Source: a bacterium (GTDB lineage: Bacteria > UBA8248). Taken from it: 64,000 nucleotides of DNA. The notes beneath the pieces were generated by a model. That model was not told the origin of the DNA. It saw nothing but the letters and a program-made list of their open reading frames with translations, and ran no database searches. Shown piece after piece: positions 6,541 through 23,745 of the stretch (the first letter of the stretch is position 1; every line of letters starts with the position of its first letter). Where the stretch lies: NCBI GenBank assembly GCA_965213625.1, contig CBDBZU010000004.1, positions 1,856,001 to 1,920,000 on the forward strand. Reading direction: 5' to 3'. Made by a program: the position numbers and the translations under genes.

Positions 6541-6639
6541 GTCGCTTCCCTCCTATCGTTCCCGCGTTGACGAGGGCGAGCGGTTTCCGCTACATTCCTT
6601 CGCGCACCCTTCGGGGGTTTCAGGAAAATCCTCCTGTAT

Positions 6640-6715
6640 GGGGCTGTAGCTCAGCTGGGAGAGCGCATGACTGGCAGTCATGAGGTCAGGGGTTCGATCC
6701 CCCTCAGCTCCACCA
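6640..6715 (+). tRNA. tRNA-Ala (anticodon GGC)
   Basis: GGGGCTGTAGCTCAGCTGGGAGAGCG, anticodon arm CATGA-CTGGCAG-TCATG, GGTTCGATCC T-loop, encoded CCA; 76 nt. Confidence 0.97.
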
Positions 6716-6864
6716 ACTAAATCAATTGTTCAAGCTATTTACTCGATATCTGCTATTTCGGCTGTCGCATCGTTGTTAGAACACTCGATAATCCATCCCG
6801 CATATACAGCGCAAAGCATTGAATTTTAGATGATTCAATTCTTGCAGAATACATGCCCCACATT

Positions 6865-7944
<1,080 letters not shown>

Positions 7945-8075
7945 CTCAGATTCCCCTCTCTGCGAGAATCGCTATGGACACCCGCACGAAATGGCCTGTC
8001 CTGCATGAGGCCTGTAGGCGGGTCTTCACGGGCTCGATGGCTGAAATCAATTTTAGAAAAGGCACTGCATGCTCC

Positions 8076-8909
8076 TTATTCCTTGAGACCGGTGAGCGTG
8101 ATGCCGCGGACGAAGGCGCGCTGGAAGAACAGGAATATGAACGCCGCCGGGATCATCCCCATGACCGCAAGCGCCATGATTTCATGGTAGGCGGCTGAAT
8201 CGATGCCCTCCATCTGGGCGAGGCCGAGCGGGAAAGTCTTCAGGTTGTCGGTCGTCGCCACGATGAAGGGCCAGAGGAACTGGTCCCAGTTGTCGCGGAA
8301 GGCGAGCAGCGCCAGCGCGCCCAGTGCGGGCTTGCAGTTGGGGAGAATGATGCGCCAGAAGATGCCGAATTCGCTGCATCCGTCCATCCGCGCCGCCTCG
8401 ATGAGGGAGTCGGGAATGTCCCGGATGGACTGGCGCATGAGAAAGACGCCGAAAGCGTCCACCGCCAATGGCGCGATCAGCCCGCCATAGGTGTTGACGA
8501 GGCCCAGTTCCCGCACCACGAGGAAAGTGGGCACCAATACGATTTCCAGCGGGAGCATCAGCGTGCTCAGAATCAGGCGGAAGCACAACTCCCGGTGCGG
8601 GAAACGGAACTTGGCCAGACCGTAGCCCGCCAGCGTGCAGAAAACGAGGTTTCCTCCCATGACCGCAAAGGCCACGATGAAGCTGTTGAAGAAATAGACC
8701 CCAAAAGCCCCTTTGGCCAGGGAGTTCGGGTAGTTCACCCACTGGATGTCATCCGGTATCCATTGAATGGGGAGATCGAAAACCTCGATCCCCGTCTTGA
8801 TGGAAGAGGAGACCATCCAGAAATAGGGCAGGAGCATCACCCCGACTCCTGCGACTGTGAGGAGGGATATGAGCGCGCCTCCCAAGCGGAGCATCGTCTT
8901 GCGGCTCAT
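8076..8909 (-). CDS. carbohydrate ABC transporter permease (MalG-type)
   Basis: EAARMDG EAA loop, WDQFLWP. Confidence 0.93.
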   Translation of the reverse strand: MSRKTMLRLGGALISLLTVAGVGVMLLPYFWMVSSSIKTGIEVFDLPIQWIPDDIQWVNYPNSLAKGAFGVYFFNSFIVAFAVMGGNLVFCTLAGYGLAKFRFPHRELCFRLILSTLMLPLEIVLVPTFLVVRELGLVNTYGGLIAPLAVDAFGVFLMRQSIRDIPDSLIEAARMDGCSEFGIFWRIILPNCKPALGALALLAFRDNWDQFLWPFIVATTDNLKTFPLGLAQMEGIDSAAYHEIMALAVMGMIPAAFIFLFFQRAFVRGITLTGLKE

Positions 8910-9847
8910 TCCATCCCTCCCCGGCGCAAGAGCCGCAACTGAATCAGGGTCAGGCCGAATAGAAAGACGAACAGCACCATCGAGGCTGCGGCGGCCTCTC
9001 CCATGCGGAAGAAGGCGAATCCCGTTTCGTAGATGAAGTAGGGAAGCACCCTTGTCGTCCCGTTGGGGCCGCCTTCGGTCATGACCAGAGGGTTCAGGAA
9101 CACCTTTACGGCCGAGAGGAGAGACAACACCATCACGAACGTTATCGTGGGGAGAAGCAGCGGAATCGTCACGTAAAAGAAGCGCTGGAACACACCCGCG
9201 CCGTCGATGATGGCCGCCTCATAGTATTCCTTCGGGATGGCCTGGAGGCCCGCGAGGTAAATCACGCCGAAGAGCGGGATGCCCCGCCAGATGCCGATGG
9301 CAATGAGGGCGGGAAGCGCCGACTCCTCCATCGAGAGCCAGTTGATGCGGCCGATTCCGAAGGTCTCCAGGATCGTGTTCACCAGGCCGTAGGGGTGGTA
9401 CATGAACTTCCACACCATGGCCACCACGATCTGCGACATCGCAATCGGGAAGAAATACGCCAGACGGATGACCGAACGCCCCGGCATTCGCCGATTCAGG
9501 AGGAGGGCCAGCGCCAGAGCGAAGAACCACTCCGGGATGGAGACGCCGAACATGTACTTGACCGAGACCCAGAATGATTGATGAAAGAGCGGGTTTTCCC
9601 AGAGGAGGTTGTAGTTCATGAGCCCGGTGAATACGGGCGGGCTCATGAGGTCGTAGCGGTAGAAGCTCAGCCGGAAGGCCTGGAGCATGGGGTAGAACTT
9701 GAAGATTATGAGATGAATGAGCGCAGGGAGAACGAAGAAGAACCCCGCCCAGCGGAGGTGGCTGTGGAGGGAGCGTTTCCCCCCTCCAGCCACCATCCGC
9801 CGAATCATCGACGGTAAAGTCCGGTCGACTCCGATCTCGCGACCCAT
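8906..9847 (-). CDS. carbohydrate ABC transporter permease (MalF-type)
   Basis: YLAGLQAIP..YYEAAIIDGAG, TEGGP; 4-bp overlap with the next gene. Confidence 0.93.
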   Translation of the reverse strand: MGREIGVDRTLPSMIRRMVAGGGKRSLHSHLRWAGFFFVLPALIHLIIFKFYPMLQAFRLSFYRYDLMSPPVFTGLMNYNLLWENPLFHQSFWVSVKYMFGVSIPEWFFALALALLLNRRMPGRSVIRLAYFFPIAMSQIVVAMVWKFMYHPYGLVNTILETFGIGRINWLSMEESALPALIAIGIWRGIPLFGVIYLAGLQAIPKEYYEAAIIDGAGVFQRFFYVTIPLLLPTITFVMVLSLLSAVKVFLNPLVMTEGGPNGTTRVLPYFIYETGFAFFRMGEAAAASMVLFVFLFGLTLIQLRLLRRGGME

Positions 9848-9858
9848 CTGTTCTCCGC

Positions 9859-11142
9859 CTACTTCTTGGCCAGCGCCGCGTCGATCTCCTTACACGCCCT
9901 GTCGAGCGATTTCTTGGAGTCTTCCTTCTTCAGGACCACGCGCTCCATCGCCCGGTGAATCGCCTGGTTGAGTTCGAGAACTTTGTCGGAGCGCTGCAGA
10001 AAGCGCCCGTTCGAGATGTCCTTTACGAACACGTCCAGATAGCGTGTCTTGCGCGCATCTTCCATCCCGGGAAGGTTCAGGAAATTTTTGTCGGGATGGG
10101 GATAGGAAGTCCTCTCGTACCACGTCTTGGAGTCATTGACGACGTGTTTTAACACTTTATGCACTGCCCGCTGCTTCGCCTCGGAAATATGGGGATTCAC
10201 CGCGAGGGCGAAGCCGTAAATCGGCGTCACGGGCTTTTTGGGGTCCACCTGCGGGAAGGGCACCACCTTCACGTGTTTCATTACCTTGGGGCCGAATTGC
10301 GCCACACTGCCTGCGTGGGTGATGAACATGGAGACGCGCCCCTTGGGCAGATCGTCAGCCGGGAGGGCGTTGGTGCCCAGGCTTACGGTGGGGTCCGAAG
10401 CCTTGTAGTGGTGCGCAATCCTGGCCCGGACATTCATGGCCTTCACGCCCGCCTTGCTGTTGGCCAGGCACTTTTTCCCGGAGGCGTCGAGGACTTCTCC
10501 CCCGTATTGGCGAATCGTCGTGTTGAAGTACCACATCGTCCAGGTGGAGGAGTGCATGGCGAAATCGAAGCCCTCGCGCACCATCCTGCTGCCCCTCATT
10601 TTCACCAGTTTTTTCCCGATGCGGCCAACGTCTTCCCAGGTGCGCGGGTAATCCTTGTCCGGGTCCAGGCCCGCTTCCCGGAAGTGTTTCGTGTTAATGA
10701 AGAGGCTGAAGCCGGAAGCGATGGGAGGGAGAGCGTAAAGCTTCCCCTTGTGGATGTAGCCGTCCAGCGCCCCCGGTATGTAGGCCTTCTTCATATCCTC
10801 GAGGTCCTTGTAGCCCAGCCATTCGGGACGAATGGGCGCGAGGACGTTCTTGGCGGTGAAGCCGGGCAGCAGGAAGTCGATGAGCGTGAACATGTCGGCC
10901 GCCGAGCGCGTGGAAAGCGCGGCCGTGAGTTTTTGGAAGTAGGGGGTCATCGCGAAAAAATCATACTGCACTGGAGACTTGGGGTTCTTCTTGTTCCACT
11001 CCGCCACCAAATCCTTCGAGTAGTTGTTGTGCGGCGGGTTGCTGTGTTCCCACCAGGTGATCCTTTGCTGGGCGAAAGCCGGGCTCATGAGAAGCACCGT
11101 CAGCAATCCGACCAAAAGATGAGTCATGAGGAAGCGTTGCAT
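9859..11142 (-). CDS. carbohydrate-type ABC transporter substrate-binding protein
   Basis: Signal peptide ending PAFA, GKLYALP, EAGLDP..PRTWED; RBS GGAGGG upstream of ATG 11142. Confidence 0.88.
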   Translation of the reverse strand: MQRFLMTHLLVGLLTVLLMSPAFAQQRITWWEHSNPPHNNYSKDLVAEWNKKNPKSPVQYDFFAMTPYFQKLTAALSTRSAADMFTLIDFLLPGFTAKNVLAPIRPEWLGYKDLEDMKKAYIPGALDGYIHKGKLYALPPIASGFSLFINTKHFREAGLDPDKDYPRTWEDVGRIGKKLVKMRGSRMVREGFDFAMHSSTWTMWYFNTTIRQYGGEVLDASGKKCLANSKAGVKAMNVRARIAHHYKASDPTVSLGTNALPADDLPKGRVSMFITHAGSVAQFGPKVMKHVKVVPFPQVDPKKPVTPIYGFALAVNPHISEAKQRAVHKVLKHVVNDSKTWYERTSYPHPDKNFLNLPGMEDARKTRYLDVFVKDISNGRFLQRSDKVLELNQAIHRAMERVVLKKEDSKKSLDRACKEIDAALAKK

Positions 11143-11782
11143 GGTATTCCCTCCTCTCCCGGTCCGTCTGTTTTGATCAGCGGACCTATGAGGATTCCGG
11201 TACATCCTATGGATATAGGTGTGCCGGAATCGAATGAGCGCTGCAGAAGCACGTCACAGGATTCCACGACGACCACTATTTCCTTTGTAGCTTGAATGGA
11301 AACATCTTAGCACCTGGCCACTCCAGATCAAAATTCCTTTAACGATGGTCCGGTTCCGGCGCCGCACTCACGCTTGCGCGGCAGACCGGTCATCCCCACT
11401 TCCGCGAACCGTTTTCGCCTCGCCGGAAGCTCTCCTGTTTGCAGTTTTTTTAGAAAATTCTTAATCGCAATGTCGCGCCAAAAGGTGTGAAAAGTCGAAT
11501 TTCAATATTGTTGCAACATTCAAAAGTTGTCCCTATATTGAAAGTAGGAACAAGTTCATAAAGAGCGCGACACGCTGTGATTTTGATTTTGAAATACGCA
11601 GCTTTTACAGGGGTGTCGATACTGCTTGTCGCTGGCCTGGGCGCGGCCAACATCGAATAGAAGTTCGCGTTCCGTGACGACGCTTCGCAGATGAGGAGGG
11701 CATAAACCGATTCGAAATAGTTGATGGTTGATGATCGTATTGACATCAGCTAACGGAAGACTTCGCCAGGGGAGTTCTCGCA

Positions 11783-12532
11783 ATGTTGATCAAATCTATT
11801 TTACCTATTTTTTTGTCCCTGTCTTTTCTTCTTATCCTTATCCCAAACGCTTCCCTGGCGAAGTATAAAGTCGTATCCATCACAGGCGGCGGGACCATCA
11901 CCGGCAAGGTGAGCTTCAAGGGCAAGCCTCCCGCCCCCGTCAAATACATTATCACCAAGGACTATAACGCCTGCGGTAAGGGCCAGGTAACCCGCCAGGA
12001 GGTGGACGCGAAGGACGGCGCCCTCAGGGGCGTTGTCGTCTATCTCGACAAGGTCAGGAAGGGCAAGGGCTATCCCAAGGAAATCCAGAGCGCTGTGGTG
12101 GACCAGAAAAAGTGCGCCTATGTCCCCTACCTCCAGGTCGTCGCCGAGGGGGGCAAGGTCACCATCCTGAACAGCGACGCCGCCCATCACAACATCCACA
12201 CCTACGAGATCATCGGCCGGTCGAAACGCTCCATGTGGAACATCTCCCAGCCCAAGCAGCGGAAAAAAGTCGTCCGCAGGGCCAAGGTTCGGCGGAGCCC
12301 CATCGTCCGTATCGAGTGCGACGTGCACAACTGGATGAAGGGGTTTCTCTTCGTGGCCAGGAATCCCTATTACGCGCGCGTGAACGATGACGGCAGTTTT
12401 GAGATCAACGACGTTCCTCCGGGGAAATACTCCCTGCGGGCGTGGCACCCGGCCCTGGGGGTCAAGAAGAAAAAGATCGCCATAACCGCCGGGGGGAAGA
12501 AGGCCGCCGCCTTCACGTTTTCTTCGAAATAA
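11783..12532 (+). CDS. secreted carboxypeptidase-regulatory-like/cupredoxin-like beta-sandwich protein
   Basis: Signal peptide, GTITGKV, DQKKC.YVP, NSD..HHNIH, CDVHNWM, DVPPGKY..RAWH. Confidence 0.75.
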   Translation: MLIKSILPIFLSLSFLLILIPNASLAKYKVVSITGGGTITGKVSFKGKPPAPVKYIITKDYNACGKGQVTRQEVDAKDGALRGVVVYLDKVRKGKGYPKEIQSAVVDQKKCAYVPYLQVVAEGGKVTILNSDAAHHNIHTYEIIGRSKRSMWNISQPKQRKKVVRRAKVRRSPIVRIECDVHNWMKGFLFVARNPYYARVNDDGSFEINDVPPGKYSLRAWHPALGVKKKKIAITAGGKKAAAFTFSSK

Positions 12533-12604
12533 GGCCGTATTTCCAGCATATATGGGACGGAAGTCTTACAGGAGATAGAACAGCCAGCTTGGGAGGAGGA
12601 AAGA

Positions 12605-13711
12605 ATGGAATTCGTTCACGCCATCCGGCGCCGGATACTCTGCGGAATCCTGCTGAGCGCCTGGGTTTTTCTCCCGGCGATAGGGTGGGGAGCTTCCCTC
12701 GCACCCCTTCCGGCGCCCAAGGCCCAGAAGCCCGCGCAGACCGAGTTGGGCCGGCATCTCTTCTTCGATCCCCGCATGTCGGGGGACGGGGGGATCAGCT
12801 GCGCCACCTGCCATCAGCCCGCAAAGGGCTGGGGTGACGGCCAGAGCCTCTCGACGGGCTATCCGGGGAGTAAGTATTTCAGAAACGCCCAGACGCTCCT
12901 GAACGCCGCCTACAACAAGCGGGTCTTCTGGGACGGCCGTCTGAGCGGGGCCGACTTGCCCACCCTCGTGCGGGACCACCTGACGGAAGCCCACTTCATG
13001 CTGGTGGACGGACGTCTTTTCCCCGAGCGGCTCAAGCAGGTTCCCGCTTACGTCAAGATGTTCAAGGAGGCCTATGGCGGGGAGCCTTCCTTTGGCGGCG
13101 CGCTCAAGGCCATCTCGGCGTTCCTGCATACCATCGCCTCGCGGAACGCGCCTTTCGATGCGTACCTGAAGGGCGATAAAAAGGCCCTTTCTGCCCAGGC
13201 CAAACAGGGACTCGCCCTGTTCCAGGGGAAGGCCGGTTGCGTCCAGTGCCATAACGGCGCCCTTTTGAGCGACGGCGGATTTCACGCGCTCGGCGTTCCC
13301 GAAAACGAGCAGATTTTCAAGGACCCGATGCGCCACATCACTTTCCGCCGGTTCAACAAGGTGCTCGGCGTCCCGAATTTCATGAACTTGAGAGCCGACG
13401 CGGGCCTCTACGTCGTGACGAAAGAAGAGAGCGACCGCGGCAAGTTCCGCACGCCGACGCTGCGCGAAGTCGCCCGGACGGCGCCCTACATGCACAACGG
13501 CGCTTTCGCCACACTGGAGGACGTCGTCGCCTTCTACAATAAGGGCGGCGGGAGCGGCCCCAACAAGAGCTCGCGGCTCAAGCCCCTGGGACTCTCCGCG
13601 GATGAGAGAAAGGCCCTGGTGGAGTTCATGAAGAGTCTCTCCGGTGCTGCGGTTTCCACGAATGAACCGAAAATTCCCGATTATGAACTCCGCAAACTCG
13701 GCGATAATTGA
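12605..13711 (+). CDS. di-haem cytochrome c peroxidase (MauG/CcP family), IdrP-like
   Basis: Signal peptide, LGRHLFFDPRMS, CATCH, FWDGR, CVQCH, FRTPTLR, APYMHNG. Confidence 0.9.
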   Translation: MEFVHAIRRRILCGILLSAWVFLPAIGWGASLAPLPAPKAQKPAQTELGRHLFFDPRMSGDGGISCATCHQPAKGWGDGQSLSTGYPGSKYFRNAQTLLNAAYNKRVFWDGRLSGADLPTLVRDHLTEAHFMLVDGRLFPERLKQVPAYVKMFKEAYGGEPSFGGALKAISAFLHTIASRNAPFDAYLKGDKKALSAQAKQGLALFQGKAGCVQCHNGALLSDGGFHALGVPENEQIFKDPMRHITFRRFNKVLGVPNFMNLRADAGLYVVTKEESDRGKFRTPTLREVARTAPYMHNGAFATLEDVVAFYNKGGGSGPNKSSRLKPLGLSADERKALVEFMKSLSGAAVSTNEPKIPDYELRKLGDN

Positions 13712-13721
13712 GGAGACGGCC

Positions 13722-14861
13722 ATGAACGCGCGAATGAAAAACTGCTTCCTGGGTTCCACGATGGCCGTCTGCTTCATCGCCGCCCTTCTGGTGGGAGGAG
13801 CGGACGCGGCCCGGAAGGGGAAATTCCCTCCGCTGGGGCCATTACCGCCTGTTCCGGTTCCGGCTGACAATCCCATGTCTCCGGCCAAGGTGGAGTTGGG
13901 CAAGCTGCTCTTTTTCGACGCCCGCCTGTCGGGGGACGCCAGCACGTCGTGCGCCTCTTGCCACAGCCCCGAAAACGGCTGGGGAGACGGCGGCGACCTG
14001 AGCCGGGGCTACCCGGGCACGCAGCACTGGCGGAACTCCCAGACGATACTCAATTCTGCCTATTACGCAAAACTGTTCTGGGCAGGCGAGGTTCCGAGTC
14101 TGGAAGCCCAGGCCAAGAGCGCCGCCACGGGCAACGTGGCCGGAAACGGCGACACCATGATGATGGAGGAGCGTCTGCGCCAGGTTCCCGAATACGTCAA
14201 GCGCTTCCGTGAGGTGTTCGGATCCGCCTGGCCGACCATCGACGACGCATGGCGGGCCATCTCGGCCTACGAGCGCACACTGATTTCGAAGGCGGAGGAC
14301 GTGCCGTTCGACCGCTTCATGAAAGGAGACAAGAAGGCGCTCTCGGAAAGCGCTCTGCGCGGGCTGGCTCTTTTCCGCGGAAAGGCGCAGTGCATCCAGT
14401 GCCACAACGGCCCCCTCCTTTCGGATGAGGACTATCACAACATCGGCGTCCCCAAGAACCCCGCGTTCGAGGAAGACCCCTTGCGGCAGATAACGCTTCG
14501 CTTTCAGCACGTGATACGAGGCGTTCCCGAATCCGTGTACCGCAAGGCGGATCGGGATTTGGGCCTCTACTACACCACCAAGCGGGAGGCCGATAAGGGG
14601 AGGTTCCGCACCCCCAGCCTGCGGGAGCTGAATTACACGGCGCCTTTCATGCACAACGGCGCATTTTTCGAGTTGGATGAGGTCATCGATTTTTATGACG
14701 AAGGAGGAGGGGAGGACGCGAACAAGAGTCCACTTCTCAAGAAATTGGGGCTCTCGGACGAGGAGAAGGAAGACCTGCTGGCCTTTCTGGAATCGCTCTC
14801 GAGCGATAAGCCTTTGCTCGTTCAGCCCCCTGAACTGCCGCCGTACGCGGCCATGCCGTAA
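13722..14861 (+). CDS. second di-haem cytochrome c peroxidase (MauG/CcP family), IdrP-like
   Basis: AGGAG RBS, signal peptide, LGKLLFFDARLS, CASCH, LFWAGE, CIQCH, FRTPSLR, APFMHNG. Confidence 0.9.
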   Translation: MNARMKNCFLGSTMAVCFIAALLVGGADAARKGKFPPLGPLPPVPVPADNPMSPAKVELGKLLFFDARLSGDASTSCASCHSPENGWGDGGDLSRGYPGTQHWRNSQTILNSAYYAKLFWAGEVPSLEAQAKSAATGNVAGNGDTMMMEERLRQVPEYVKRFREVFGSAWPTIDDAWRAISAYERTLISKAEDVPFDRFMKGDKKALSESALRGLALFRGKAQCIQCHNGPLLSDEDYHNIGVPKNPAFEEDPLRQITLRFQHVIRGVPESVYRKADRDLGLYYTTKREADKGRFRTPSLRELNYTAPFMHNGAFFELDEVIDFYDEGGGEDANKSPLLKKLGLSDEEKEDLLAFLESLSSDKPLLVQPPELPPYAAMP

Positions 14862-14871
14862 GGAGGAATCC

Positions 14872-15414
14872 ATGACTCAGGAAGCCAAGGAAACCCGGCC
14901 TTGTATCTCGCGGCGCGCCTTTCTCCTGGCCGGCGGAACCGCCATGAGCGTGGTGCTGGTCGAGGGCATCCCCGGCCTGGCCGGAGCGGCCCTGCAAAGG
15001 GCGGCGTATCCCCGCCGGAAAATCGGCAAGCTCAGCGCCCTCAAAGTCGATACGCCTCAGTATTTCCAGTATCCCTGGAAGGACGTCTTCTCGGGGTGCA
15101 TGCTGGTCAAGCTGGGCGTAACGGCCGGCGGCGGCGTCGGCCCCAAGAGAGACGTCGTGGCGTTCAGTACCCTGTGCACCCACATGGGCGGCCCTCTGCA
15201 GGGGACATACAACGGGCAGTACAAGGCCATCGGCCCGTGCCCGTTCCATCTGACGACCTTCGACCTCATGAAGCACGGCATGGTCGGGGCGGGGCAAGCC
15301 ACGGAAAGCCTCCCCCAGGTCGTACTGGAGACCCGTGGAGACGACATCTACGCGATCGGAATGATGGGGCTGCTATACGGTTATCACTCGAATCTTGCGC
15401 CGGCACAGCGCTGA
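14872..15414 (+). CDS. idrB: Rieske [2Fe-2S] small subunit, IdrB/AioB-like
   Basis: AGGAGG RBS, Tat signal SRRAFL, CTHMGG...GPCPFH, GQATESLPQV, GLLYG. Confidence 0.8.
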   Translation: MTQEAKETRPCISRRAFLLAGGTAMSVVLVEGIPGLAGAALQRAAYPRRKIGKLSALKVDTPQYFQYPWKDVFSGCMLVKLGVTAGGGVGPKRDVVAFSTLCTHMGGPLQGTYNGQYKAIGPCPFHLTTFDLMKHGMVGAGQATESLPQVVLETRGDDIYAIGMMGLLYGYHSNLAPAQR

Positions 15415-15426
15415 GGAGGACGCATC

Positions 15427-18093
15427 ATGGCAGGAAAGGTAACGAACTACTACCTTGCGGAAGACAGTGTCCCCCTCCCCCCGCGAGACGCTGAGGTTTT
15501 CACCACGGCGTGCGACTATTGCATCGTGGGCTGCGGGTACAAGGTCTACCGCTGGCCAATCGGGCGCGAGGGCGGGCCCAAGGCCGGCCAGAACGCCCTG
15601 GGCGTCGATTTTCCCACCGCCATCATGAGCGGCGGCTGGGTCAGCCCGAACATGCACAACATCATCATGGTGAACGGTCGCCCACACCACGTCATCGTCA
15701 TGCCGGACAAGGATGCGAAGGTCGTGAACGTCGGGGGAAACCACTCCATCCGGGGCGGCGTCCTGGCGAAGAAACTCTATAATCCCAACGAACCCTCACA
15801 GGACCGCCTGCGCCAGCCGATGATGCGCGTTCGAGGAACCTTACAGGAGGTCTCGTGGGATACGGCTATGGGCGTCTTGGCGGGCATCTCGAAACACGTC
15901 CTCGACAAGTTCGGCGAGCACGCCTGGGCCATGAAGACGTATTCCTACCAGTATTTCGAAAATACCTATGCCATCTCCAAGCTCGCCTTCCGCGCCATCG
16001 GGACGCCGGCCTACGCCCCGCATGACAAGCCGGGTCCCGGCCCGGACACGCCTGGGATTGATTTTTCCGGCATCAATCCATTCAGCGCCTCCTATGACGA
16101 CTGGGGAGAGGCCGAGGTCATCTTCTTCTCGGGCGTCGACCCGTGGGAGACCAAGTCGGTGCTGTTCACCTCCTGGATCATGGGCGGAAAAACGCCGAAC
16201 AAAAAGCTGGTCTTCGCTCTTCCGCGTAAGACCTCGGGCGTGGCCTACGGCGAGAAGCGCGGCGGTCTCTTCCTGCCCGTCATTCCGGGAACGGATACGG
16301 TCCTCCAATTGGCCATCATCCGCCTGATCCTCGAGAACGGCTGGGAGGACAAGGAGTTTATCGCGAGAAAGGTGTCGAACAAGTGGGAGATCGGCTCCGG
16401 CATGGGACGCGGCACCCGCAACACGCCGTGGCAGTGGGTCACGACCTGGGGCAAGTACGGGACCGACTTCGAGGGCTATAAAAAGTGGATTCTGAGCTAT
16501 CCCTACGCCGAACTGGAGCGAGCCGCGAAGATCACGGGCGTGCCGGCGGCGGACATTCGAAAGACAGCCGAAATCCTGGCCAAGCCCAAGCCCGACGGAA
16601 CGCGCAAGAAAACCTCGTTCATGCTCGAGAAGGGCAATTACTGGTGCAACAGTTTCGGGAACACGGCTTCCTTCGCGGCCCTCGGGCTGGTCTGCGGCGC
16701 CGGGTCGCGGCCCGGTCGCGTGATCTCCCGAGGCGGGGGGCATCAGCGCGGCTGGATGGGCGCGGCCGGTTACCCGAGGAGCCTGTCTCCGGAGAAGGCG
16801 CCGGGACGCCGCAAGAAGGAAATCGATCTCGACCGCTGGGTCGTAGACGGTCACGTCCGCTTCGCATGGGTCATCGGAACCACCTGGTGCCAGGCCATGG
16901 CGGCGTCTCAGGAGTTGATGGACGTTTTCCAGCGATTGACTCGACACAACCCCCACCAGATCGAGAGTTTTGACGTCGATTCGGCGGTGGACGCCTTAAA
17001 GCGGCGCGTGGACGCCGGCGGCATGGTCGTGGCCCACCAGGACATCTACCCGGTTGCTCCCATCGGAACCGAGTATTCGGATCTGATTCTTCCGGCCGCC
17101 ACCTGGGGTGAGGAAGACTTCACCCGGTGCAACGGCGAGCGCCGCCTCAGGCTCTACAGCAAGTTCGCCGACCCCCCCGGAGAGGCCCGGCCCGACTGGT
17201 GGATCATCGCCGCGTTCGCGAGGAAGATGGGCTTCAAGGGCTTCGACTGGAAGGACAGCAACCAGATATTCGAGGAGGCGGCCCGCTTCGGACGCAAAGG
17301 AGTACTCAACTACCATCCGCTCGTCGTGAAGGCCAAGCGCGAGGGGAAACGGGGCCACGAGTTGCTCCGCGAATACGGGACCGGCGGCATCCAGACCCCC
17401 ATTCGCATGGTCAAGGGCAAACTCGTCGGGACGAAGCGTCTCCACGACGAAACCCTCGAACTGGGAACCCCCGAAGGCCCCACCATGCACAGGAAATGGC
17501 TCACCTCCTTCGGGACCCAGAGCGGCAAGGCGGTTTTGCTGAAAAGCTACTGGGAGGATTTCAAGGATTTCTACGATAGGGTCACCCCGCAGGGAGACGA
17601 GTTGTGGGTGACGAACGGCCGCATCAACGAGCTGTGGCAATCCGGCTACGACGACAAGCGGCGACCCTACATCATGCAGCGTTGGCCCCAGCAGTTCTTG
17701 GAGATTCACCCGAAAGACGCCGGCGCCCGGGGCATCGAATCAGGAGACCTGGTGGCCATCGAGAACGACGACCTGCTCGTGCAGACGGGAGGGTACATCG
17801 GCGTCGACGGCAAGGAGCAGACCTTCACCGAGCTCATGAAGGCCGGGCGGATCAAGAAGAGCAAGGGTAGCTTCACCGCCGTGGCTATGGTCACCGACGC
17901 GGTTCGGGAGGGTGTCACCTTCGCCTATTTCGGCTTTCCCGAGAACCCGGCCAACTCGGTGGTTCACCGGGTGCCGGACCCCCTGACCAACCGCTACCGC
18001 TACAAGCTGGGCAAGGGGAAGTTGAAGAAGATTGGAGAATCTCCGCACAAGCATTCGCTGACGAGCCTCAGCTTCGTCCCCCGGACGCTTTAA
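15427..18093 (+). CDS. idrA: DMSO-reductase-family molybdoenzyme large subunit, iodate reductase IdrA-like (AioA-related)
   Basis: PLPP.DAEV.TTACDYCIVGCGYKVYRWP ([3Fe-4S] Cx2Cx3C), NHSIRGG, LPAATWGE, NGERRLRLY, PPGEARPDW, NGRINELWQS, RYKLGKG; no signal peptide of its own; adjacent to a Rieske gene and two CcP genes. Confidence 0.8.
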   Translation: MAGKVTNYYLAEDSVPLPPRDAEVFTTACDYCIVGCGYKVYRWPIGREGGPKAGQNALGVDFPTAIMSGGWVSPNMHNIIMVNGRPHHVIVMPDKDAKVVNVGGNHSIRGGVLAKKLYNPNEPSQDRLRQPMMRVRGTLQEVSWDTAMGVLAGISKHVLDKFGEHAWAMKTYSYQYFENTYAISKLAFRAIGTPAYAPHDKPGPGPDTPGIDFSGINPFSASYDDWGEAEVIFFSGVDPWETKSVLFTSWIMGGKTPNKKLVFALPRKTSGVAYGEKRGGLFLPVIPGTDTVLQLAIIRLILENGWEDKEFIARKVSNKWEIGSGMGRGTRNTPWQWVTTWGKYGTDFEGYKKWILSYPYAELERAAKITGVPAADIRKTAEILAKPKPDGTRKKTSFMLEKGNYWCNSFGNTASFAALGLVCGAGSRPGRVISRGGGHQRGWMGAAGYPRSLSPEKAPGRRKKEIDLDRWVVDGHVRFAWVIGTTWCQAMAASQELMDVFQRLTRHNPHQIESFDVDSAVDALKRRVDAGGMVVAHQDIYPVAPIGTEYSDLILPAATWGEEDFTRCNGERRLRLYSKFADPPGEARPDWWIIAAFARKMGFKGFDWKDSNQIFEEAARFGRKGVLNYHPLVVKAKREGKRGHELLREYGTGGIQTPIRMVKGKLVGTKRLHDETLELGTPEGPTMHRKWLTSFGTQSGKAVLLKSYWEDFKDFYDRVTPQGDELWVTNGRINELWQSGYDDKRRPYIMQRWPQQFLEIHPKDAGARGIESGDLVAIENDDLLVQTGGYIGVDGKEQTFTELMKAGRIKKSKGSFTAVAMVTDAVREGVTFAYFGFPENPANSVVHRVPDPLTNRYRYKLGKGKLKKIGESPHKHSLTSLSFVPRTL

Positions 18094-18136
18094 TGGAGAT
18101 GGAGGTTTATAGGTCGTAGGCCATAAAGGAGGTTGT

Positions 18137-18523
18137 ATGAGAACGTTTCGGTCGAGAAGATTTTTCATCTGTGCAGGCCCGGTGCTCGCAGTGGCGCTCT
18201 TTTCTTGGTCCTCTGGTGACGGGGCCGCCCAGCAAAAAGGCGACGTTGCGGCCGGCAAGGTCAAATACCTGCAGCTTTGCGCCTCCTGCCACGGCGCATC
18301 GGGCAAGGGAGACGGCGTCGCAGCCAAGGCGCTCAGCCCGAAGCCGAGAAATCACACGGACGGCAAATACATGAAGACCATAACGGATGAATATATCGCC
18401 AAGATTACCAAACTGGGCGGGGTCGCGGTAGGGAAATCGCCGTTGATGCCACCCTGGGGCGGTGTTCTTTCGGACGCCGACCTCCAGAATCTGGTCGCAT
18501 TCATGCGCTCGCTGGCGAAATAG
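18137..18523 (+). CDS. periplasmic mono-haem class I cytochrome c
   Basis: AAGGAGG RBS, signal peptide, CASCHG..GKGDG, distal Met in MPPWG. Confidence 0.9.
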   Translation: MRTFRSRRFFICAGPVLAVALFSWSSGDGAAQQKGDVAAGKVKYLQLCASCHGASGKGDGVAAKALSPKPRNHTDGKYMKTITDEYIAKITKLGGVAVGKSPLMPPWGGVLSDADLQNLVAFMRSLAK

Positions 18524-18533
18524 GATCGCGTAC

Positions 18534-20585
18534 ATGGACTCAGGGAATCGGGAGGCCCTACCTCCTGTGCGCTCCTTTCGGGTCGAGTTGCCCGGCCACG
18601 ACCACTGGCGGAAAACGATTTGCTGTCAGGATGCGTGTCCTGTACACACGGACGCGCGGGGTTACGTCACGGCCATCTCCGAGGAGGACTTCGAGCGCGC
18701 CTACATCATCGCCCGGGGACCGAACCCCTTCGCGTCGGTTTGCGGGCGCGTCTGTGCGGCGCCATGCGAAGCGGCCTGCCGCCGCGGCAACATCGATTCG
18801 CCGGTGGCCATCCGGGCGCTCAAGCGATTCGTGACGGAGCGCTACGGGGTAGAGGCCGATTTGGCCTCCGGCAAGGGGGAATCCGCCTTCTCGCAGCGCA
18901 GCCTCAGGAGCATGCGGGACCTCCGCTTCCAGCCCTCAACGCGCACCATCAACGATTTCTCGGTGCTCGAAGCGGCCCGCCGCAAGCCCGGGGGGGTGGA
19001 GACGGCGGGGCGAAAGGCCGCCGTCGTCGGTTCGGGCGTGGCGGGGTTGACCTGCGCGCACGATCTTGCCCTGCTCGGCTACGACGTGAGCGTTTTCGAA
19101 AAACAGGAAGTCCCCGGAGGCATGCTCATGCTCGGGGTTCCCGAATACCGCCTTCCGCGCGATCTCGTTCAGGCCGAGATTCAGGCCATCCTCAGCCTGG
19201 GCGTGGAGCTGCGGGTGAACAAGGCCATTGGGCGGGACTTCGACCTCTCCACCCTTCGCAAGGAAGGCTTCGAAGCGGTGTTCATCGCCATCGGCGCGCA
19301 TGTGAGCCGTTCTCTTCCCATGGAAGGCCAGGACGCGGACGGTGTTTTCCGGGCCGTCGAATTTCTGCTGAACGTGAATCTGAACTTCCGCGTCGAGTTG
19401 GGCGAGCGCGTAGTTGTGATCGGCGGGGGAAACGTGGCCATGGACGCCGCTCGGGTCGCCGCCCGGGTGGCCGGTGAGGCGGATTCCGCCGCTAGAACTG
19501 CCGATCAAACGGAAGACGCAGTTCTCATGCGCGAGATGATGGATGTGGCCCGCGAGGCGATGCGCGTGGGAGCGAGGAAAGTCCACGTCATCTGCCTGGA
19601 ATCTCGCGACGAGATGCCTGCTGCGGACTTCGAGATCGAAGAGGCGCTCGAAGAGGGAATCGATCTCGAGCCCCGGGTGGGGCCAGTCCGCATCGTGGAG
19701 AAAGATGGCCGGGTGGTCGGGCTGGAAGTCCACACGTGCACCCGCGTCTTCAATGAGGAGGGCCGCTTCAACCCGGAATTCGAGCCGGATACCAAGCGCG
19801 TGATTCCGTGCGATTCGGTTATCGTGGCCGTCGGCCAGGCTTCGGACCTTTCCTGGATCAAGGATGAGGACGGCGTCGAGACGACGCCGCGCGGGACCAT
19901 TCGCGTCGATCCCGAAACCTTGGCCACGACCGCTCCCGGCATCTACGCGGGCGGAGACGTCGCCATGGGTCCCCGGATATTCATCGAAGGGGTGGAAAAC
20001 GGTCACCGGGCCGCTCGCTCCATACACACCTTTCTGTCAGGCGGTCAGGCGGGCGTCCAGACGCATCTCCAGTGGGCCTCCATCGAACCCTTGCAGCAGG
20101 CACTACTTCAGGAGTCGGGGGAGGGATATCCCCTTCCCATCGTCAATCCCGGATACCAGAAAGTGTCTCGGCGAAACCCGGACGCCCTGCCCATCGAGCG
20201 CAGAATCGGCGTCGCCGAGGTGGAACTGGGTTATTCGCCCGCAGATGCGGTTGGGCAGGGAATGCGGTGTCTGCGCTGCAGCGCGAATCCGATCTTCGAT
20301 GGCGCCAAATGCATCCTCTGCGGCGGTTGTGTGGACGTCTGCCCGTCGCGCTGCCTGCGAATGGTTCCCCTGGAAGCATTACAGGGAGGAGAGGATCTGG
20401 CGGCTCTGGTGCAGGCCCGATTTGGAACGTCCGCCGGGGGCGCCGGAGAGTCGGGGATGGGCGCAGCCATGATCATGGATCCGGACAAGTGCATCCGTTG
20501 TTCGCTCTGCGCCCAGCGCTGTCCCACGGGCGCCGTTACCATCGAGAATTTTTCTTTCCAGGAAGAGTGGGTTGAGCTTGGATGA
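18534..20585 (+). CDS. GltD/NfnL-like FAD/NAD(P)-dependent Fe-S oxidoreductase with C-terminal 2x[4Fe-4S] ferredoxin domain
   Basis: CQDACP, CGRVCAAPCEAAC, GSGVAG, GGGNVAMD, AGGDV, RCLRC, CILCGGCVDVCP, CIRCSLCAQRCP. Confidence 0.9.
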   Translation: MDSGNREALPPVRSFRVELPGHDHWRKTICCQDACPVHTDARGYVTAISEEDFERAYIIARGPNPFASVCGRVCAAPCEAACRRGNIDSPVAIRALKRFVTERYGVEADLASGKGESAFSQRSLRSMRDLRFQPSTRTINDFSVLEAARRKPGGVETAGRKAAVVGSGVAGLTCAHDLALLGYDVSVFEKQEVPGGMLMLGVPEYRLPRDLVQAEIQAILSLGVELRVNKAIGRDFDLSTLRKEGFEAVFIAIGAHVSRSLPMEGQDADGVFRAVEFLLNVNLNFRVELGERVVVIGGGNVAMDAARVAARVAGEADSAARTADQTEDAVLMREMMDVAREAMRVGARKVHVICLESRDEMPAADFEIEEALEEGIDLEPRVGPVRIVEKDGRVVGLEVHTCTRVFNEEGRFNPEFEPDTKRVIPCDSVIVAVGQASDLSWIKDEDGVETTPRGTIRVDPETLATTAPGIYAGGDVAMGPRIFIEGVENGHRAARSIHTFLSGGQAGVQTHLQWASIEPLQQALLQESGEGYPLPIVNPGYQKVSRRNPDALPIERRIGVAEVELGYSPADAVGQGMRCLRCSANPIFDGAKCILCGGCVDVCPSRCLRMVPLEALQGGEDLAALVQARFGTSAGGAGESGMGAAMIMDPDKCIRCSLCAQRCPTGAVTIENFSFQEEWVELG

Positions 20586-21078
20586 CATGACTGCGGGCAT
20601 GGATGAACAGACCCCCCGGCGGCGTATGCTTCTGGGCCTCGGCTGGGTTTCTTTTCTGATTTCCCTGCTGGGCCCGGTTCTCGCCAACGTCCGCTTCTTG
20701 TTCCCCAACGTCGTTTATGAGGGTGAGTCGGTTCTGAAACTCGACGCCCTGGAGAAATACACCGTGGGGTCCATCACGTTTTTCGCCAACAAGAAAATCG
20801 TTTTGTTTCGTGAAAAAGACGGGTTCCGCGCCTGCACGGCCGTCTGTCCTCATCTTCGCTGCGTGATTACCCCCTTTGTCGGGGCGCCGGGCGCGTCTCC
20901 GGATATTTTGAGGGCCCGGTGCCCGTGCCACGGCAGCACTTTCGATGGGCGGGGACAGGTGCTCGGAGGGCCTGCGCCGCGCGGACTCGACTTCTTCCTC
21001 GTGACGAAATCGCCGGATGGCCGCGTCGTCGTCGATACGCGCAAAGTCGTTGCCCCGTCCGAGCATTTCAAGCTCTGA
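20572..21078 (+). CDS. membrane-anchored Rieske Fe-S subunit of a Rieske/cytochrome b complex
   Basis: RRR followed by a TM helix, CPHLRC and CPCHGS, GPAPRGL; start uncertain. Confidence 0.88.
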   Translation: MSLDDMTAGMDEQTPRRRMLLGLGWVSFLISLLGPVLANVRFLFPNVVYEGESVLKLDALEKYTVGSITFFANKKIVLFREKDGFRACTAVCPHLRCVITPFVGAPGASPDILRARCPCHGSTFDGRGQVLGGPAPRGLDFFLVTKSPDGRVVVDTRKVVAPSEHFKL

Positions 21079-21087
21079 GCCGTCATC

Positions 21088-22584
21088 ATGGTCACCGAAT
21101 CACCGCAGAAATCAGGCCGCAGTCAAGCCGTATCGTGGCTTAGGGACAACCGCGTCGTCCGTTCGATTTTCCGCCGCGGTTATCCGGACAACGATCTGGA
21201 TCGCGCGGCCGTCATGTTCTCGAATTTCTTCCTGCACGTCCTTCCCGCGCGAACGCACGTTCACAGCCTGAAACCCACCTATACCTGGGGACTCGGCATC
21301 ATCTCCCTGTTCCTCTTCGTGATCCTTCTGGGCACCGGCGCTTTGCTCATGTTCTTCTACGTCCCCTCGACCGAGCGCGCCTACAGCGACATGAAGGATC
21401 TGGAATTCGTCGTCTCCTACGGCGTCGTCCTGCGGAATCTCCATCGCTGGGCCGCTCACGCGATGGTCGCCGTCGTCTTCTTGCACATGTGCCGTGTGTT
21501 CTATACGGCCAGCTACAAGGCGCCCCGCGAGTTCAACTGGGTCATCGGGGTGCTCCTCTGGGGGGCGACCCTGATGATGAGCTTCACGGGCTACCTCCTC
21601 CCCTGGGATCAGCTCGCCTTTTGGGCCATCACCGTCGGGTCGAGCATCGCCAGCTACCCGCCCCTGGTTGGAGAATCCATCCGCACGCTGATGCTCGGGG
21701 GCGATACGGTGGGGCAGAACGCGCTGATCCGGTTCTACGTCATGCACGTCATGCTCCTGCCGGGCATCATGATGATACTCATGGGCGTCCATTTCTGGCG
21801 GATACGCAAAGACGGAGGCCTTTCCCGTCCACCCACGCCGCCCTCTGAGGCAGCCCGGGGCGAGACGGCGGCTTTTTCGCCGCACAAGACGTACATGCTC
21901 GTGGAACTGGCCGAGGGCAAGACGCCCACGGTGGATACGCAGGCCCCGGAAGAAGAGGTTATGAGCTGGCCTCACACGGTGTTCAGGATGCTGGTCGTCT
22001 TCGTGGGAGTCGTGGCCGTTCTCTCCGTTGTCGCCTACTTTTTCGATGCGCCCCTGGAAGAGCTGGCCAACCCGGACCATCCGCCAAATCCCGCCAAGGC
22101 GCCCTGGTACTTTCTCGGACTTCAGGAAATCGTGAGCTATTCCGCTCTGGCGGGAGGCGTCATCGTTCCCGCCGCCGCGATTATCGGCCTCATGAGCATT
22201 CCCTACATCGACCGCAACCCCGAGGGCCAGGGAAACTGGTTCACCTCGGGCCAGGGCCGGCGGATTACGCTCTGGTCGGTCCTGGTGATCATTCCGGTCG
22301 TCCTCGTCCTGACGTATCTGAACGAGCACTACGCGGTGCGGAAACTGGTTCCGGGCGCCTCGCAGATATGGGTCGACCTTTTGAATCCGGGGACTATACT
22401 GATCCTCCTCTTCGCGGTCGGTTCGCTCTACATCTGGCGGCGGACGGGGTCGAGCCGGATGGGGGCCCTGGCCCTCTATTCTTATTTTCTGACGTCTTAT
22501 CTGATTTACACGTTCATCGGGCTTTATTTCCGCGGCGCCAACTGGGCCTGGATATGGCCGTGGCAGGCGGCGGGTCTGCACTGA
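21088..22584 (+). CDS. cytochrome b (fused cyt b6-like + subunit IV-like)
   Basis: LHRW...LHM and MH-x14-HF haem ligands, [23 protein letters not shown] (PEWY-equivalent), extra C-terminal TM helices. Confidence 0.92.
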
Positions 22585-22596
22585 GGCGGATGACGG

Positions 22597-23409
22597 ATGG
22601 CGAATTCAAATCACAATGATTCCCATGTGCCGTTCGGGTGGGTGGTCGCCTTCGCCGCCCTGAGCGTGTGCGCGGCCCTGTTTTTTCTGCTCTCCGTCTG
22701 GAAGGACTATGACCGCGAATGGCGGGGCTACCAGCGGACGTTCCGCGAATTGCTCGTCGAAAGGGCCGGAACCGAAGAAGAGCGCAAATCAGTTCTGGCG
22801 AGCGGGGATCAGTTCGAGCAAATCATCGTGGCCAATGGCGAGCGCGTGGACAGGTGCGTCATGTGCCACCGGGGGGTCGAGCACCCGGCGTTCAAGGATG
22901 CCGACCAGCCTTTCGCCAGGCATCCCTCCATTCCGCTGCATCCCTTCGAGCAATTCGGCTGCACCGTGTGCCACCAGGGCCAGGGCAGGGCGACGACCGT
23001 TCAGGACGCCCACGGAGAAGTCCCGTTCTGGGAAGAGCCGCTGCTGCGGGGCGGGTTCATTCAGGCCAGCTGCGGTCCGTGCCACGCAGGCGCCCTGAAA
23101 GATGCCCCTCTCATCCAGAGGGGAAAGCTACTTTATCTGATGAACGGCTGTCTCGCCTGCCACAAAATCAGAGGCGCCGGCGGGGTCATCGGGCCTGACC
23201 TCACGTTTGCGGGCGAACGCCGGAAGGACCCGAAGTGGCACATCGAACACTTCAAGTTTCCGCAAAAGGTTTCTCCCGGCTCCGCCATGCCCGCCTACGG
23301 CCATTTGAAGCCGGAGGATCTCGAAGCGCTGACGGTCTACATGCTGAGCCTCCGCAGGGCGCCTTCCGCCCTGGCGCTGGCTGCTCCCATAACTCCCAAA
23401 AAGAAATAG
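22597..23409 (+). CDS. membrane-anchored tetrahaem cytochrome c
   Basis: N-terminal TM; CVMCH, CTVCH, CGPCH, CLACH; GPDLT, SPGSAMP. Confidence 0.9.
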   Translation: MANSNHNDSHVPFGWVVAFAALSVCAALFFLLSVWKDYDREWRGYQRTFRELLVERAGTEEERKSVLASGDQFEQIIVANGERVDRCVMCHRGVEHPAFKDADQPFARHPSIPLHPFEQFGCTVCHQGQGRATTVQDAHGEVPFWEEPLLRGGFIQASCGPCHAGALKDAPLIQRGKLLYLMNGCLACHKIRGAGGVIGPDLTFAGERRKDPKWHIEHFKFPQKVSPGSAMPAYGHLKPEDLEALTVYMLSLRRAPSALALAAPITPKKK

Positions 23410-23433
23410 AAGCGGCATCGCTTTCGGGAACGC

Positions 23434-23484
23434 AATTTATCGAAAAACCTCGTAAATTTATCTGAATTTATCGAATTTTTCAGA
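23434..23484 (+). repeat. AT-rich AATTTATC repeats, copy A
   Basis: AATTTATC at 23434, 23455 and 23465, AATTTTTC at 23474; 23465-23484 matches 62062-62081 at 19/20. Confidence 0.6.
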
Positions 23485-23745
23485 TTTAATCCGACCGAAG
23501 AGGGAGGATGAAACCCGTCCCGATCGAGCCCGGGAACTGCCCCGCCATATCCGAGCCGCCGTTGCGGCGCGCACCGCTGCCGGGAACGCCTCGGTTGATG
23601 AGGCGAATCCCCGGCGATTGGCTCTCAAAGGCCTTAGTTTTTGCGAGAGAACGCTAAAAATGTTACTAATGTATTCAATCTGACATTTTGTTTGCCCCTT
23701 GATAAGGGCATCTTTCTTTTTATAACGAGGTAGGGATTCGATTTC

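Follow-up and report, generated by a model that had tools for sequence, protein, structure and literature searches.

An iodate reductase-like cassette and a flavoprotein-bearing Rieske/cytochrome b module in one putative operon of a UBA8248 bacterium

Can an iodate reductase and the complex that would supply its electrons be encoded in a single operon? This question is raised by a 64,000-nt stretch of the genome of an uncultured, sponge-associated bacterium of the UBA8248 lineage (GenBank assembly GCA_965213625.1, contig CBDBZU010000004.1, positions 1,856,001 to 1,920,000 of the forward strand), the whole of which is called the window here. At positions 11783–23409 of the window, ten genes lie on the + strand with intergenic distances of at most 72 bp or short overlaps. 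Their domain content was assigned with Pfam and NCBIfam, and haem, twin-arginine translocation (Tat) and Fe-S motifs were checked on the sequence. The ten genes, which the original prediction had listed with the same positions and domains, are as follows.

11783..12532, +, secreted amicyanin-like cupredoxin with a C-terminal immunoglobulin (Ig)-like domain (motif, AlphaFold2 model and Foldseek)
12605..13711, +, first dihaem cytochrome c peroxidase-like protein (CcP), at the IdrP position (PF03150, 148 bits; two CxxCH)
13722..14861 (start approximate), +, second dihaem CcP, at the IdrP position (PF03150, 150 bits; two CxxCH)
14872..15414, +, IdrB-like Tat-exported Rieske small subunit (TIGR02694, 120 bits; cut-off 95.65)
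15427..18093, +, IdrA-like molybdopterin catalytic subunit with an N-terminal 3Fe-4S domain (Rieske_3, Molybdopterin and Molydop_binding)
18137..18523, +, secreted monohaem cytochrome c, first gene of the Rieske/cytochrome b module (PF13442, PF00034)
18534..20585, +, cytoplasmic NAD(P)-binding Fe-S flavoprotein of 683 residues (Fer4_20, Pyr_redox_2 and a C-terminal 2x[4Fe-4S] part)
20572..21078, +, membrane-anchored Rieske [2Fe-2S] subunit (PF00355)
21088..22584, +, cytochrome b6 fused to a subunit-IV-like part (PF00033 and PF00032 in one chain)
22597..23409, +, membrane-anchored tetrahaem cytochrome c (four CxxCH, N-terminal hydrophobic stretch; Pfam cytochrome c families)

The putative operon consists of two five-gene modules. 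The Idr cassette (cupredoxin, two dihaem peroxidases, IdrB and IdrA) is followed by the Rieske/cytochrome b module (cytochrome c, NAD(P)-type Fe-S flavoprotein, Rieske protein, fused cytochrome b and tetrahaem cytochrome c). From the coordinates, the successive gaps are 72, ~10, 10, 12, 43, 10, -14 (+1 from the next ATG), 9 and 12 bp. The junction between the two modules is thus 43 bp long (18093–18137) and contains no regulator gene, which speaks for their coupling. For genes 3 (CcP) and 7 (flavoprotein), the true start is probably later than that of the longest open reading frame (ORF).

The best explanation of this arrangement, which we hold with a confidence somewhat better than even, is one operon in which an Idr cassette for iodate reduction and a flavoprotein-bearing Rieske/cytochrome b complex belong together.

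The molybdoenzyme and its partners

The original prediction recognized the signature of idrABP1P2. The molybdenum (Mo) subunit could be mistaken for arsenite oxidase: it scores 457.5 bits against TIGR02693 (cut-off 359), and because the proteins of the window score above the cut-offs of the NCBIfam arsenite-oxidase models, these models do not separate IdrA from AioA. For a finer comparison, 80 IdrA loci were collected by a pattern scan with one genome per species, including the locus of Denitromonas iodatirespirans IR-12 (L071). A plasmid search added IdrA of Azonexus hydrophilus NCP973, which is named as a dissimilatory iodate reducer in the text of PMC13455634, and AioA anchors from strain NT-25, Thermus and Hydrogenophaga.

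On these sequences, the Mo subunit is placed in the IdrA clade, apart from AioA. Its identity is 61–61.6% to IdrA of IR-12 (residues 12–888), 58.7–59.3% to IdrA of NCP973, 71–77% to IdrA of Methylomirabilota/Rokubacteria, and, to the three AioA anchors, 28–31% (plasmid search) and 32–35% (284 bits). A maximum likelihood tree of 88 rows was built with IQ-TREE (quick mode, LG+G4) and supported by the Shimodaira–Hasegawa-like approximate likelihood ratio test (SH-aLRT). The three AioA anchors split from all other rows at SH-aLRT 100. IdrA of the window falls in an 11-row clade (SH-aLRT 100) in which all members come from the lineage of the window. The closest relatives of these 11 rows are the Methylomirabilota/Rokubacteria rows (sister at SH-aLRT 99), and the resulting 18-row group is sister (SH-aLRT 96) to the proteobacterial clade with IR-12 and NCP973. 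Rokubacteria, NC10, Lindowbacteria and Planctomycetaceae had already been placed in the IdrA clade in the main text of PMC8692401. Twenty-nine alignment columns are fixed for one residue in the three AioA anchors and for another in 20 proteobacterial rows. Of these, 22 show the IdrA-type residue in the window, 4 the AioA-type residue, and 3 neither.

The genes around idrA agree with this placement. The first CcP (12605–13711) is 50% identical to its IR-12 counterpart in L071 over 100% of the length, the second is 60% identical to the second CcP of L071, and IdrB (14872–15414) is 62% identical to IdrB of that locus. IdrB carries the motifs SRRAFL (Tat) and C-x-H...C-x2-H (Rieske); the N-terminus of IdrA carries C-x2-C-x3-C, and PF18465 matches it with 125.6 bits. 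The order CcP-CcP-IdrB-IdrA is that of IR-12 and NCP973, and it recurs among the 80 loci, at least one CcP match being present in 78 and an IdrB match in 74. According to section 10 of PMC8692401, two peroxidase genes tell idr neighborhoods from aio neighborhoods. The catalytic subunit of the window lies outside the AioA branch and has two CcP genes alongside, so it does not qualify as AioAB arsenite oxidase, and the idrABP1P2 signature is upheld by both the tree and the synteny.

Some IdrA homologues have other surroundings. In the Chloroflexota/Dehalococcoidia subclade (L047, L048, L052, L055 and L056), only one CcP match and no IdrB at E 1e-5 are seen, which may be a reduced or divergent idr layout. 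The Planctomycetaceae homologue L040 (62% identity) has no CcP, IdrB or cupredoxin match within 10 kb on either side.

The Rieske/cytochrome b module and the cupredoxin

The second half of the operon probably encodes a quinol-oxidizing Rieske/cytochrome b complex that bears a flavoprotein, a type originally reported from anammox bacteria. Among 177,635 distinct PDB sequences, its Rieske protein has its two best matches, both better than the Rieske proteins of b6f complexes, in 9rk4 (E 1e-14) and 9rk3 (E 1.6e-9). According to PMC12954380, these are Kuste4569 and Kustd1480, the Rieske subunits of two Kuenenia complexes with an NAD(P) oxidoreductase. The Rieske motif in the window, CPCHGSTF, has the same Ser and Phe pair as Kustd1480, for which the same text gives a measured potential of +335 mV. 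The flavoprotein, present in one copy in the genome, combines a GltD/NfnB-like core with a C-terminal two-cluster ferredoxin domain, and its best solved match is 9bov/9bp5. The structure 9bp5 is NfnABC, named in PMC12954380 as a structural homologue of the Kuenenia flavoprotein subunit Kuste4570. The description of this half in the original prediction, a Rieske/cytochrome b complex with a GltD/Nfn-type flavoprotein, is supported by these matches.

A split paralogue of the cytochrome b is encoded elsewhere in the genome, and its N-terminal half shares 54% identity with the protein of the operon. Among the four canonical haem-b histidines of the latter, H119 and H133 are conserved in 57/57 homologues, H220 in 54/57, and H235 in 52/57, the misses being gaps. 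His50 was considered as a flavoprotein-specific haem ligand, following the extra haem b proposed in PMC12954380. It was rejected, as His50 is invariant in 57/57 homologues including the plain paralogue.

Docking of residues 500–683 of the flavoprotein on cytochrome b was predicted. The interaction prediction score from aligned errors (ipSAE) is 0.54 (runs 0.54, 0.58 and 0.48) against 0.16 for the best control. In a benchmark, 58 of 80 solved complexes and 2 of 110 mismatched pairs attained the mark, but only 7 of those 80 complexes, together with both mismatches, did so at values of 0.60 or below. The runs agree in at least 83% of contacts, and the predicted local distance difference test (pLDDT) of the partners is at least 74. 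The model weakly suggests that the C-terminal part of the flavoprotein docks on cytochrome b.

The monohaem cytochrome c had been counted with the Idr half in the original prediction. It is 65–71% identical to the first gene of the modules in genomes G050, G040 and G048, whereas the cytochrome c encoded after Azonexus idrA shares only 29% identity with it over 80 residues. Because it is near the genes of stand-alone modules and far from that of Azonexus, the cytochrome c belongs by descent to the Rieske/cytochrome b half. Related modules (L131, L153 and L186, compared with 21088–22584 of the window) vary in their cytochrome b: in some of them cytochrome b and subunit IV are fused, and in others an in-frame stop codon separates the two parts.

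Gene 1 (11783–12532) encodes an amicyanin-like cupredoxin, the predicted type-1 copper electron carrier of the Idr cassette. Its sole Pfam match is the C-terminal Ig-like domain, and the cupredoxin was found by motif, model and fold search. The motif C-x2-H-x2-M is present in 37/37 homologues of gene 1. In an alignment of 23 sequences H136, N137, C179, H182 and M185 are invariant, and so are C64 and C111. The spacing of His-Asn and C-x2-H-x2-M matches that in amicyanin. The AlphaFold2 model has a mean pLDDT of 91.8, and Foldseek against the PDB ranks the cupredoxin domain of NirK first, followed by amicyanin, plastocyanin and pseudoazurin, the top matches having probability 1.00 and target template modelling (TM) scores of 0.6–0.7. 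A Greek-key fold and a His...Cys-His-Met ligand set, the predicted copper site, are both present. The protein was originally called a secreted beta-sandwich protein; the secretion stands, and the label is corrected to cupredoxin.

The cupredoxin gene belongs to the Idr cassette, because in genome G036, where the Idr genes lie on the opposite flank of the module, it has moved along with them. A homologue lies beside idr in 37 of the 80 IdrA loci, in Planctomycetota, Betaproteobacteria, Rokubacteria, Hydrogenedentota, Myxococcota and others; none was found in the idr loci of IR-12 or NCP973. The word "cupredoxin" is absent from PMC8692401, and none of the papers listed by a literature search names a copper protein together with iodate or idrA. 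The cupredoxin is a recurrent fifth idr gene in several phyla, overlooked in that literature. In 22 of 80 metagenome modules, for example at L167:~9443-10000, the flavoprotein gene is immediately preceded by a distant relative (30–38% identity over ~60% of the length). As this relative precedes stand-alone modules, the cupredoxin family accompanies both Idr cassettes and Rieske/cytochrome b modules.

Occurrence of the pairing and its genomic setting

Among 51 genomes of the phylum-level group of the window, the flavoprotein is found in 20 and IdrA in 17, and all 17 IdrA-positive genomes have the flavoprotein. The two adjoin in 15 of the 17. Fourteen genomes have the Idr-then-module order, 13 of them in the genus of the window (the window included) and one, G007, in another family. 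G036 has the module-then-Idr order on one contig. In G015 the order is interrupted by a contig end, and in G048 Idr and the module lie on different contigs, the module being preceded by peptidase and TauE genes. The flavoprotein occurs without IdrA in G022 (a fragment at a contig end), G040 and G050. Within the genus of the window, both modules are present in 14 genomes and missing from 8, and a single genome carries a fragment. The pairing of Idr with the flavoprotein module is real and confined to one lineage.

No regulator gene adjoins the fused operon of the window. An Rrf2-family gene precedes the stand-alone modules (L117:6149-6787 in G050; L118:12896-13363 in G040). In G040, upstream of the Rrf2 gene (L118:13811-17853, - strand), a NuoF-like flavoprotein and a 912-residue NuoG/formate-dehydrogenase-like molybdoenzyme (2Fe-2S, 4Fe-4S) are encoded. 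It is possible that this pair is the NAD-linked partner of the module there.

The flanks of the operon are unrelated to it: an ATP-binding cassette (ABC) transporter on the minus strand lies upstream, and a luciferase-like monooxygenase (Pfam) downstream. The features to the left of the operon are listed below.

6640..6715, +, tRNA-Ala(GGC) (ARAGORN), at the left edge of a 17-kb variable segment
6865..11205, -, sugar-type ABC transporter: MalK-like ATPase, two permeases and a solute-binding protein (Pfam)
11511..11539, +, weak sigma-70-like promoter match, within the 578-bp gap before gene 1

Sequences that match the window at ~1–6.5 kb and ~23.7–27 kb are only 1.0–1.3 kb apart in G033 and G023. 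In G021 the same flanks are 3.1 kb apart, with the left flank inverted. The tRNA-Ala(GGC) is seen at the junction in these three genomes too. Because the operon and the ABC transporter are missing in three genomes of the same genus (L208–L210), they constitute a variable segment of 17 kb (6540–23740) beside tRNA-Ala. The ABC transporter (6865–11205) is part of this segment and lies outside the respiratory system. G021 was rejected as a clean empty site, its left flank being inverted and the solute-binding gene ~105 kb away; the clean sites are G033 and G023. No integrase domain was found among the ORFs scanned around the segment, and no attachment (att) repeats were found, only repeats of up to 8 bp being shared between its two edges. 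The two modules are gained and lost together on the 17-kb segment in this lineage.

Promoter-like sites are not in excess (3 against 2.7 +/- 1.4 in shuffled sequences), nor are terminator-like sites (18 against 12.9 +/- 4.0). As these counts are near the shuffled background, the scan is of no help in defining the operon structure.

RNA libraries provide a further view. Of the 24 runs listed, 3, from two studies, are recorded as RNA, and their contigs were compared with the window at a likeness of at least 85%. They come from relatives, since they are mostly 85–95% identical to the window. Per run, 29 of 30 bins are covered in all three, and no cover is seen at 11400–11810. Two contigs, 16947–19770 in X21 and 17603–18714 in X23, begin in idrA and, at ~90% identity, extend through the cytochrome c gene as far as the flavoprotein gene. 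Such bridging of the module junction is supportive of one transcriptional unit, although not decisive. The original prediction would be refuted if the two halves never co-occurred in other genomes; they do co-occur in the lineage of the window, where they are adjacent in 15 related genomes and bridged by RNA-library contigs, and they do not at 72 other IdrA loci.

Electron flow, rival explanations and known systems

It can be proposed, as the best-supported mechanism, that the second module is the electron supply of Idr. Quinol would be oxidized at the Rieske/cytochrome b complex. The high-potential electron would pass from the Rieske cluster to the tetrahaem cytochrome c, and from there by way of the soluble cytochrome c and/or the cupredoxin to periplasmic IdrAB, where iodate would be reduced. 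The same carriers might also feed the two peroxidases, which would remove reactive by-products. The low-potential electron would enter the b haems, and could then return to the quinone pool or pass to or from NAD(P)(H) by way of the flavoprotein, which would dock on the cytoplasmic side. This scheme would be the published idr model (PMC8692401 section 9), with a linked module in place of an unlinked bc1 complex. As for the flavoprotein, quinol-driven reduction of NAD(P)+ and input from NAD(P)H are both conceivable, and bifurcation and reverse operation are conjecture. For the Kuenenia complexes, quinol-driven NAD(P)+ reduction is itself put forward as a proposal only (text of PMC12954380).

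The original prediction spoke of a complete dedicated chain, and the word "dedicated" is not sustained. The module could instead be a general-purpose respiratory complex of this family, whose own cytochrome c serves any periplasmic acceptor, with Idr having landed or been retained beside it on a mobile segment. Several observations weigh against wiring specific to Idr and favor this explanation. A complete module stands without IdrA behind an Rrf2-family regulator in G040 and G050, and in G048, whose idrA contig stops 576 bp past idrA, there is no linkage between module and Idr. The module is also widespread without Idr. Flavoprotein relatives number in the thousands, with source labels including NC10, Anaerolineae and Chloroflexota at 50–60% identity. 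A metagenome scan with the flavoprotein alignment yielded 80 loci, many of them on short contigs, and since these were fetched by the flavoprotein, its place as the first enzyme gene of the module in 80/80 is to be read accordingly. It is followed by a Rieske protein in 66, cytochrome b in 63, and a multihaem cytochrome c in 45. IdrA is found in 0/80 of them, the lone match being a 25%-identical Mo enzyme on the opposite strand. Among 118 same-strand neighbor ORFs of 26 long loci, the PocR/AraC regulator families lead with 6 ORFs, and NosZ (nos_propeller and Cupredoxin_1), NosD and SCO1 are among the families with 4 each; in 4 of the 26 (L194, L181, L165 and L173), nosZ directly follows the multihaem cytochrome c. 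Conversely, Idr occurs without the module. A Rieske or cytochrome b match is seen in 7 of the 80 IdrA loci (L009–L012 and L014–L016), all of the lineage of the window, while an eighth locus of this lineage, L013, ends 182 bp after IdrA. The other 72 loci show 0/72, with downstream sequence of at least 1 kb in 62, at least 3 kb in 45, and at least 5 kb in 34. The flavoprotein at E <= 1e-40 is found in 0/10 IdrA-positive genomes of other phyla, with a query that did match in the phylum-level group of the window. Finally, the one haem-copper oxidase of the genome also needs reduced cytochrome c. Other points limit the best explanation itself. The 15 adjacencies represent few independent events, because the genomes are kin. 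The bridging contigs are no proof of a single transcript, and RNA libraries can hold DNA. The docking score lends weak support, the placement of IdrA comes from a tree without the Halorubrum/Dehalococcoidia "unknown clade" of PMC8692401, and iodate as the substrate is suggested by homology and synteny. Against the absence of dedicated wiring, the junction is 43 bp long, with no regulator and no terminator excess between the halves, and it is bridged by RNA-library contigs; all 17 IdrA-positive genomes of the group have the module, and the adjacency is kept in two gene orders. Moreover, another complex could serve housekeeping: a plain Rieske protein with split b6/subunit IV and no flavoprotein is encoded elsewhere in the genome (G000:C4:2680943-2683177; L097:6943-9177), flanked by ddl-, 2-hydroxyacid dehydrogenase- and relA-like genes. 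We regard the absence of dedicated wiring as unlikely, although it is the alternative that carries the most weight.

Two other explanations concern the substrate and the direction of electron flow. The Mo enzyme might oxidize a substrate such as arsenite, or reduce another oxyanion, with electrons running backwards through the complex from cytochrome c to NAD(P)H. The scores above the cut-offs of the arsenite-oxidase models would allow this. "aoxAB" is reported in Nitrospinota metagenome-assembled genomes (MAGs) of sponge symbionts (main text of PMC8941161), the direction of electron flow in flavoprotein-bearing complexes is unproven in the account of PMC12954380, and the role of idr in aerobic marine bacteria is called unclear in the text of PMC11445184. 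We nevertheless judge this explanation improbable, since identity is 32–35% to AioA against 59–61% to IdrA of the named iodate respirers, the split from AioA has SH-aLRT 100 with the IdrA residue at 22/29 columns, and the two peroxidase genes are the mark of idr rather than aio (PMC8692401 section 10). RuBisCO was not found in the 96.6%-complete genome either, so there is no obvious lithoautotrophic demand for reverse flow. Still a little less probable is a chain in which the flavoprotein is the electron input, from NAD(P)H to the b haems and on to quinone or the c-type haems, an NAD(P)H:iodate oxidoreductase chain that bypasses complex I. The domain content of the flavoprotein allows either direction, its position as the first enzyme gene is fixed in the metagenome modules, and the organism seems to live heterotrophically. 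However, no Rieske/cytochrome b complex is known to operate in this manner. The Ser/Phe pair of CPCHGSTF agrees with a quinol oxidase and its high-potential branch, and lends no support to NAD(P)H as the source of electrons.

A more specific form of the proposed supply of Idr by quinol oxidation is that iodate is the high-potential sink of a bifurcating complex. Of the two electrons of each quinol, one would reach IdrAB or the peroxidases by way of the tetrahaem cytochrome c, the cytochrome c and the cupredoxin. The other would be driven uphill over the b haems and on via the flavoprotein, reducing NAD(P)+. The Ser and Phe of the Rieske motif and the very positive iodate couple are compatible with such a sink, and we entertain it as a speculation that is rather unlikely to be correct. 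If true, iodate respiration would make NAD(P)H directly, and the operon would be the simplest natural non-anammox system for proving the mechanism proposed for anammox. Because the module is tied here to a single, easily assayed acceptor of very high potential, a cleaner test of the role of the NAD(P) flavoprotein is offered. As the organism is uncultured, such a test needs heterologous expression or enriched material.

The "aoxAB" genes of sponge Nitrospinota MAGs in PMC8941161 may be the same genes, taken for arsenite oxidase. Sponge-symbiont genes annotated in this way would then be re-read as members of the iodate-reductase clade. The ~90%-identical relatives in sponge and marine RNA libraries point to sponge holobionts as a site of iodate reduction.

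In line with the original prediction, which knew of no earlier description, no paper describing the pairing of Idr with the module was found in the literature searched, including the main idr papers; the supplements of PMC8692401 (Figs S1 and S2, Table S3) and of PMC8941161 (Table S5) may list these genes. Each module is known, and the module type is known beside a periplasmic terminal enzyme, HAO-like in Kuenenia and NosZ in clade II; the pairing with Idr and the cupredoxin gene were not found described.

The Idr cassette resembles the idrABP1P2 island of IR-12, NCP973 and Pseudomonas sp. SCT as presented in PMC8692401 and PMC13455634, with the same four genes in the same order of transcription. 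The location is also alike, since the idr island in section 10 of PMC8692401 is a tRNA-adjacent segment absent from close relatives. Unlike idrABP1P2 of IR-12 and NCP973, the cassette of the window has the cupredoxin as a fifth gene. The idrABP1P2 island is followed by a c551-type cytochrome and moaA, whereas the cassette of the window is followed at 43 bp by the five-gene Rieske/cytochrome b module. The electrons that come from an unlinked bc1 complex in the published model (PMC8692401 section 9) would come from a linked module here. Candidatus Methylomirabilis iodofontis and other Methylomirabilota/Rokubacteria (idrP2-P1-B-A; PMC10989891) share the gene order and are the nearest IdrA outgroup. 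Unlike the window, the flavoprotein (E <= 1e-40) is found in 0/5 of the Methylomirabilota/Rokubacteria genomes, and no Rieske/cytochrome b genes are found at their loci.

The Rieske/cytochrome b module resembles Kuste4569-4574 and Kustd1480-1485 of Kuenenia stuttgartiensis, for which the text of PMC12954380 gives a Rieske protein, a b6-type cytochrome b with subunit IV, a multihaem cytochrome c, and a cytoplasmic NAD(P) Fe-S flavoprotein. As in Kuste4569-4574, a periplasmic catalytic enzyme is co-encoded, HAO-like in Kuenenia and a molybdoenzyme in the window. Unlike in the Kuenenia complexes as described there, cytochrome b and subunit IV are fused in the window, the c subunit has 4 haems and not 6 or 8, and the module is led by an extra soluble cytochrome c gene. 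The comparison of the flavoproteins is made only through their common solved relative 9bov/9bp5, and that of the cytochromes b by subunit type.

The third related system is nitrous oxide reduction. The nosZ genes linked to metagenome modules encode 617–629 residues (L194:15276-19343, L181:10948-12801, L165:10812-12701 and L173:9312-11201), and L194 also contains nosD. In the figures of PMC11096178, clade II nos clusters are drawn with genes for Fe-S, Rieske, cytochrome b and cytochrome c proteins. The modular wiring is of the same kind as in the window, with the copper enzyme NosZ as the terminal enzyme in place of IdrAB.

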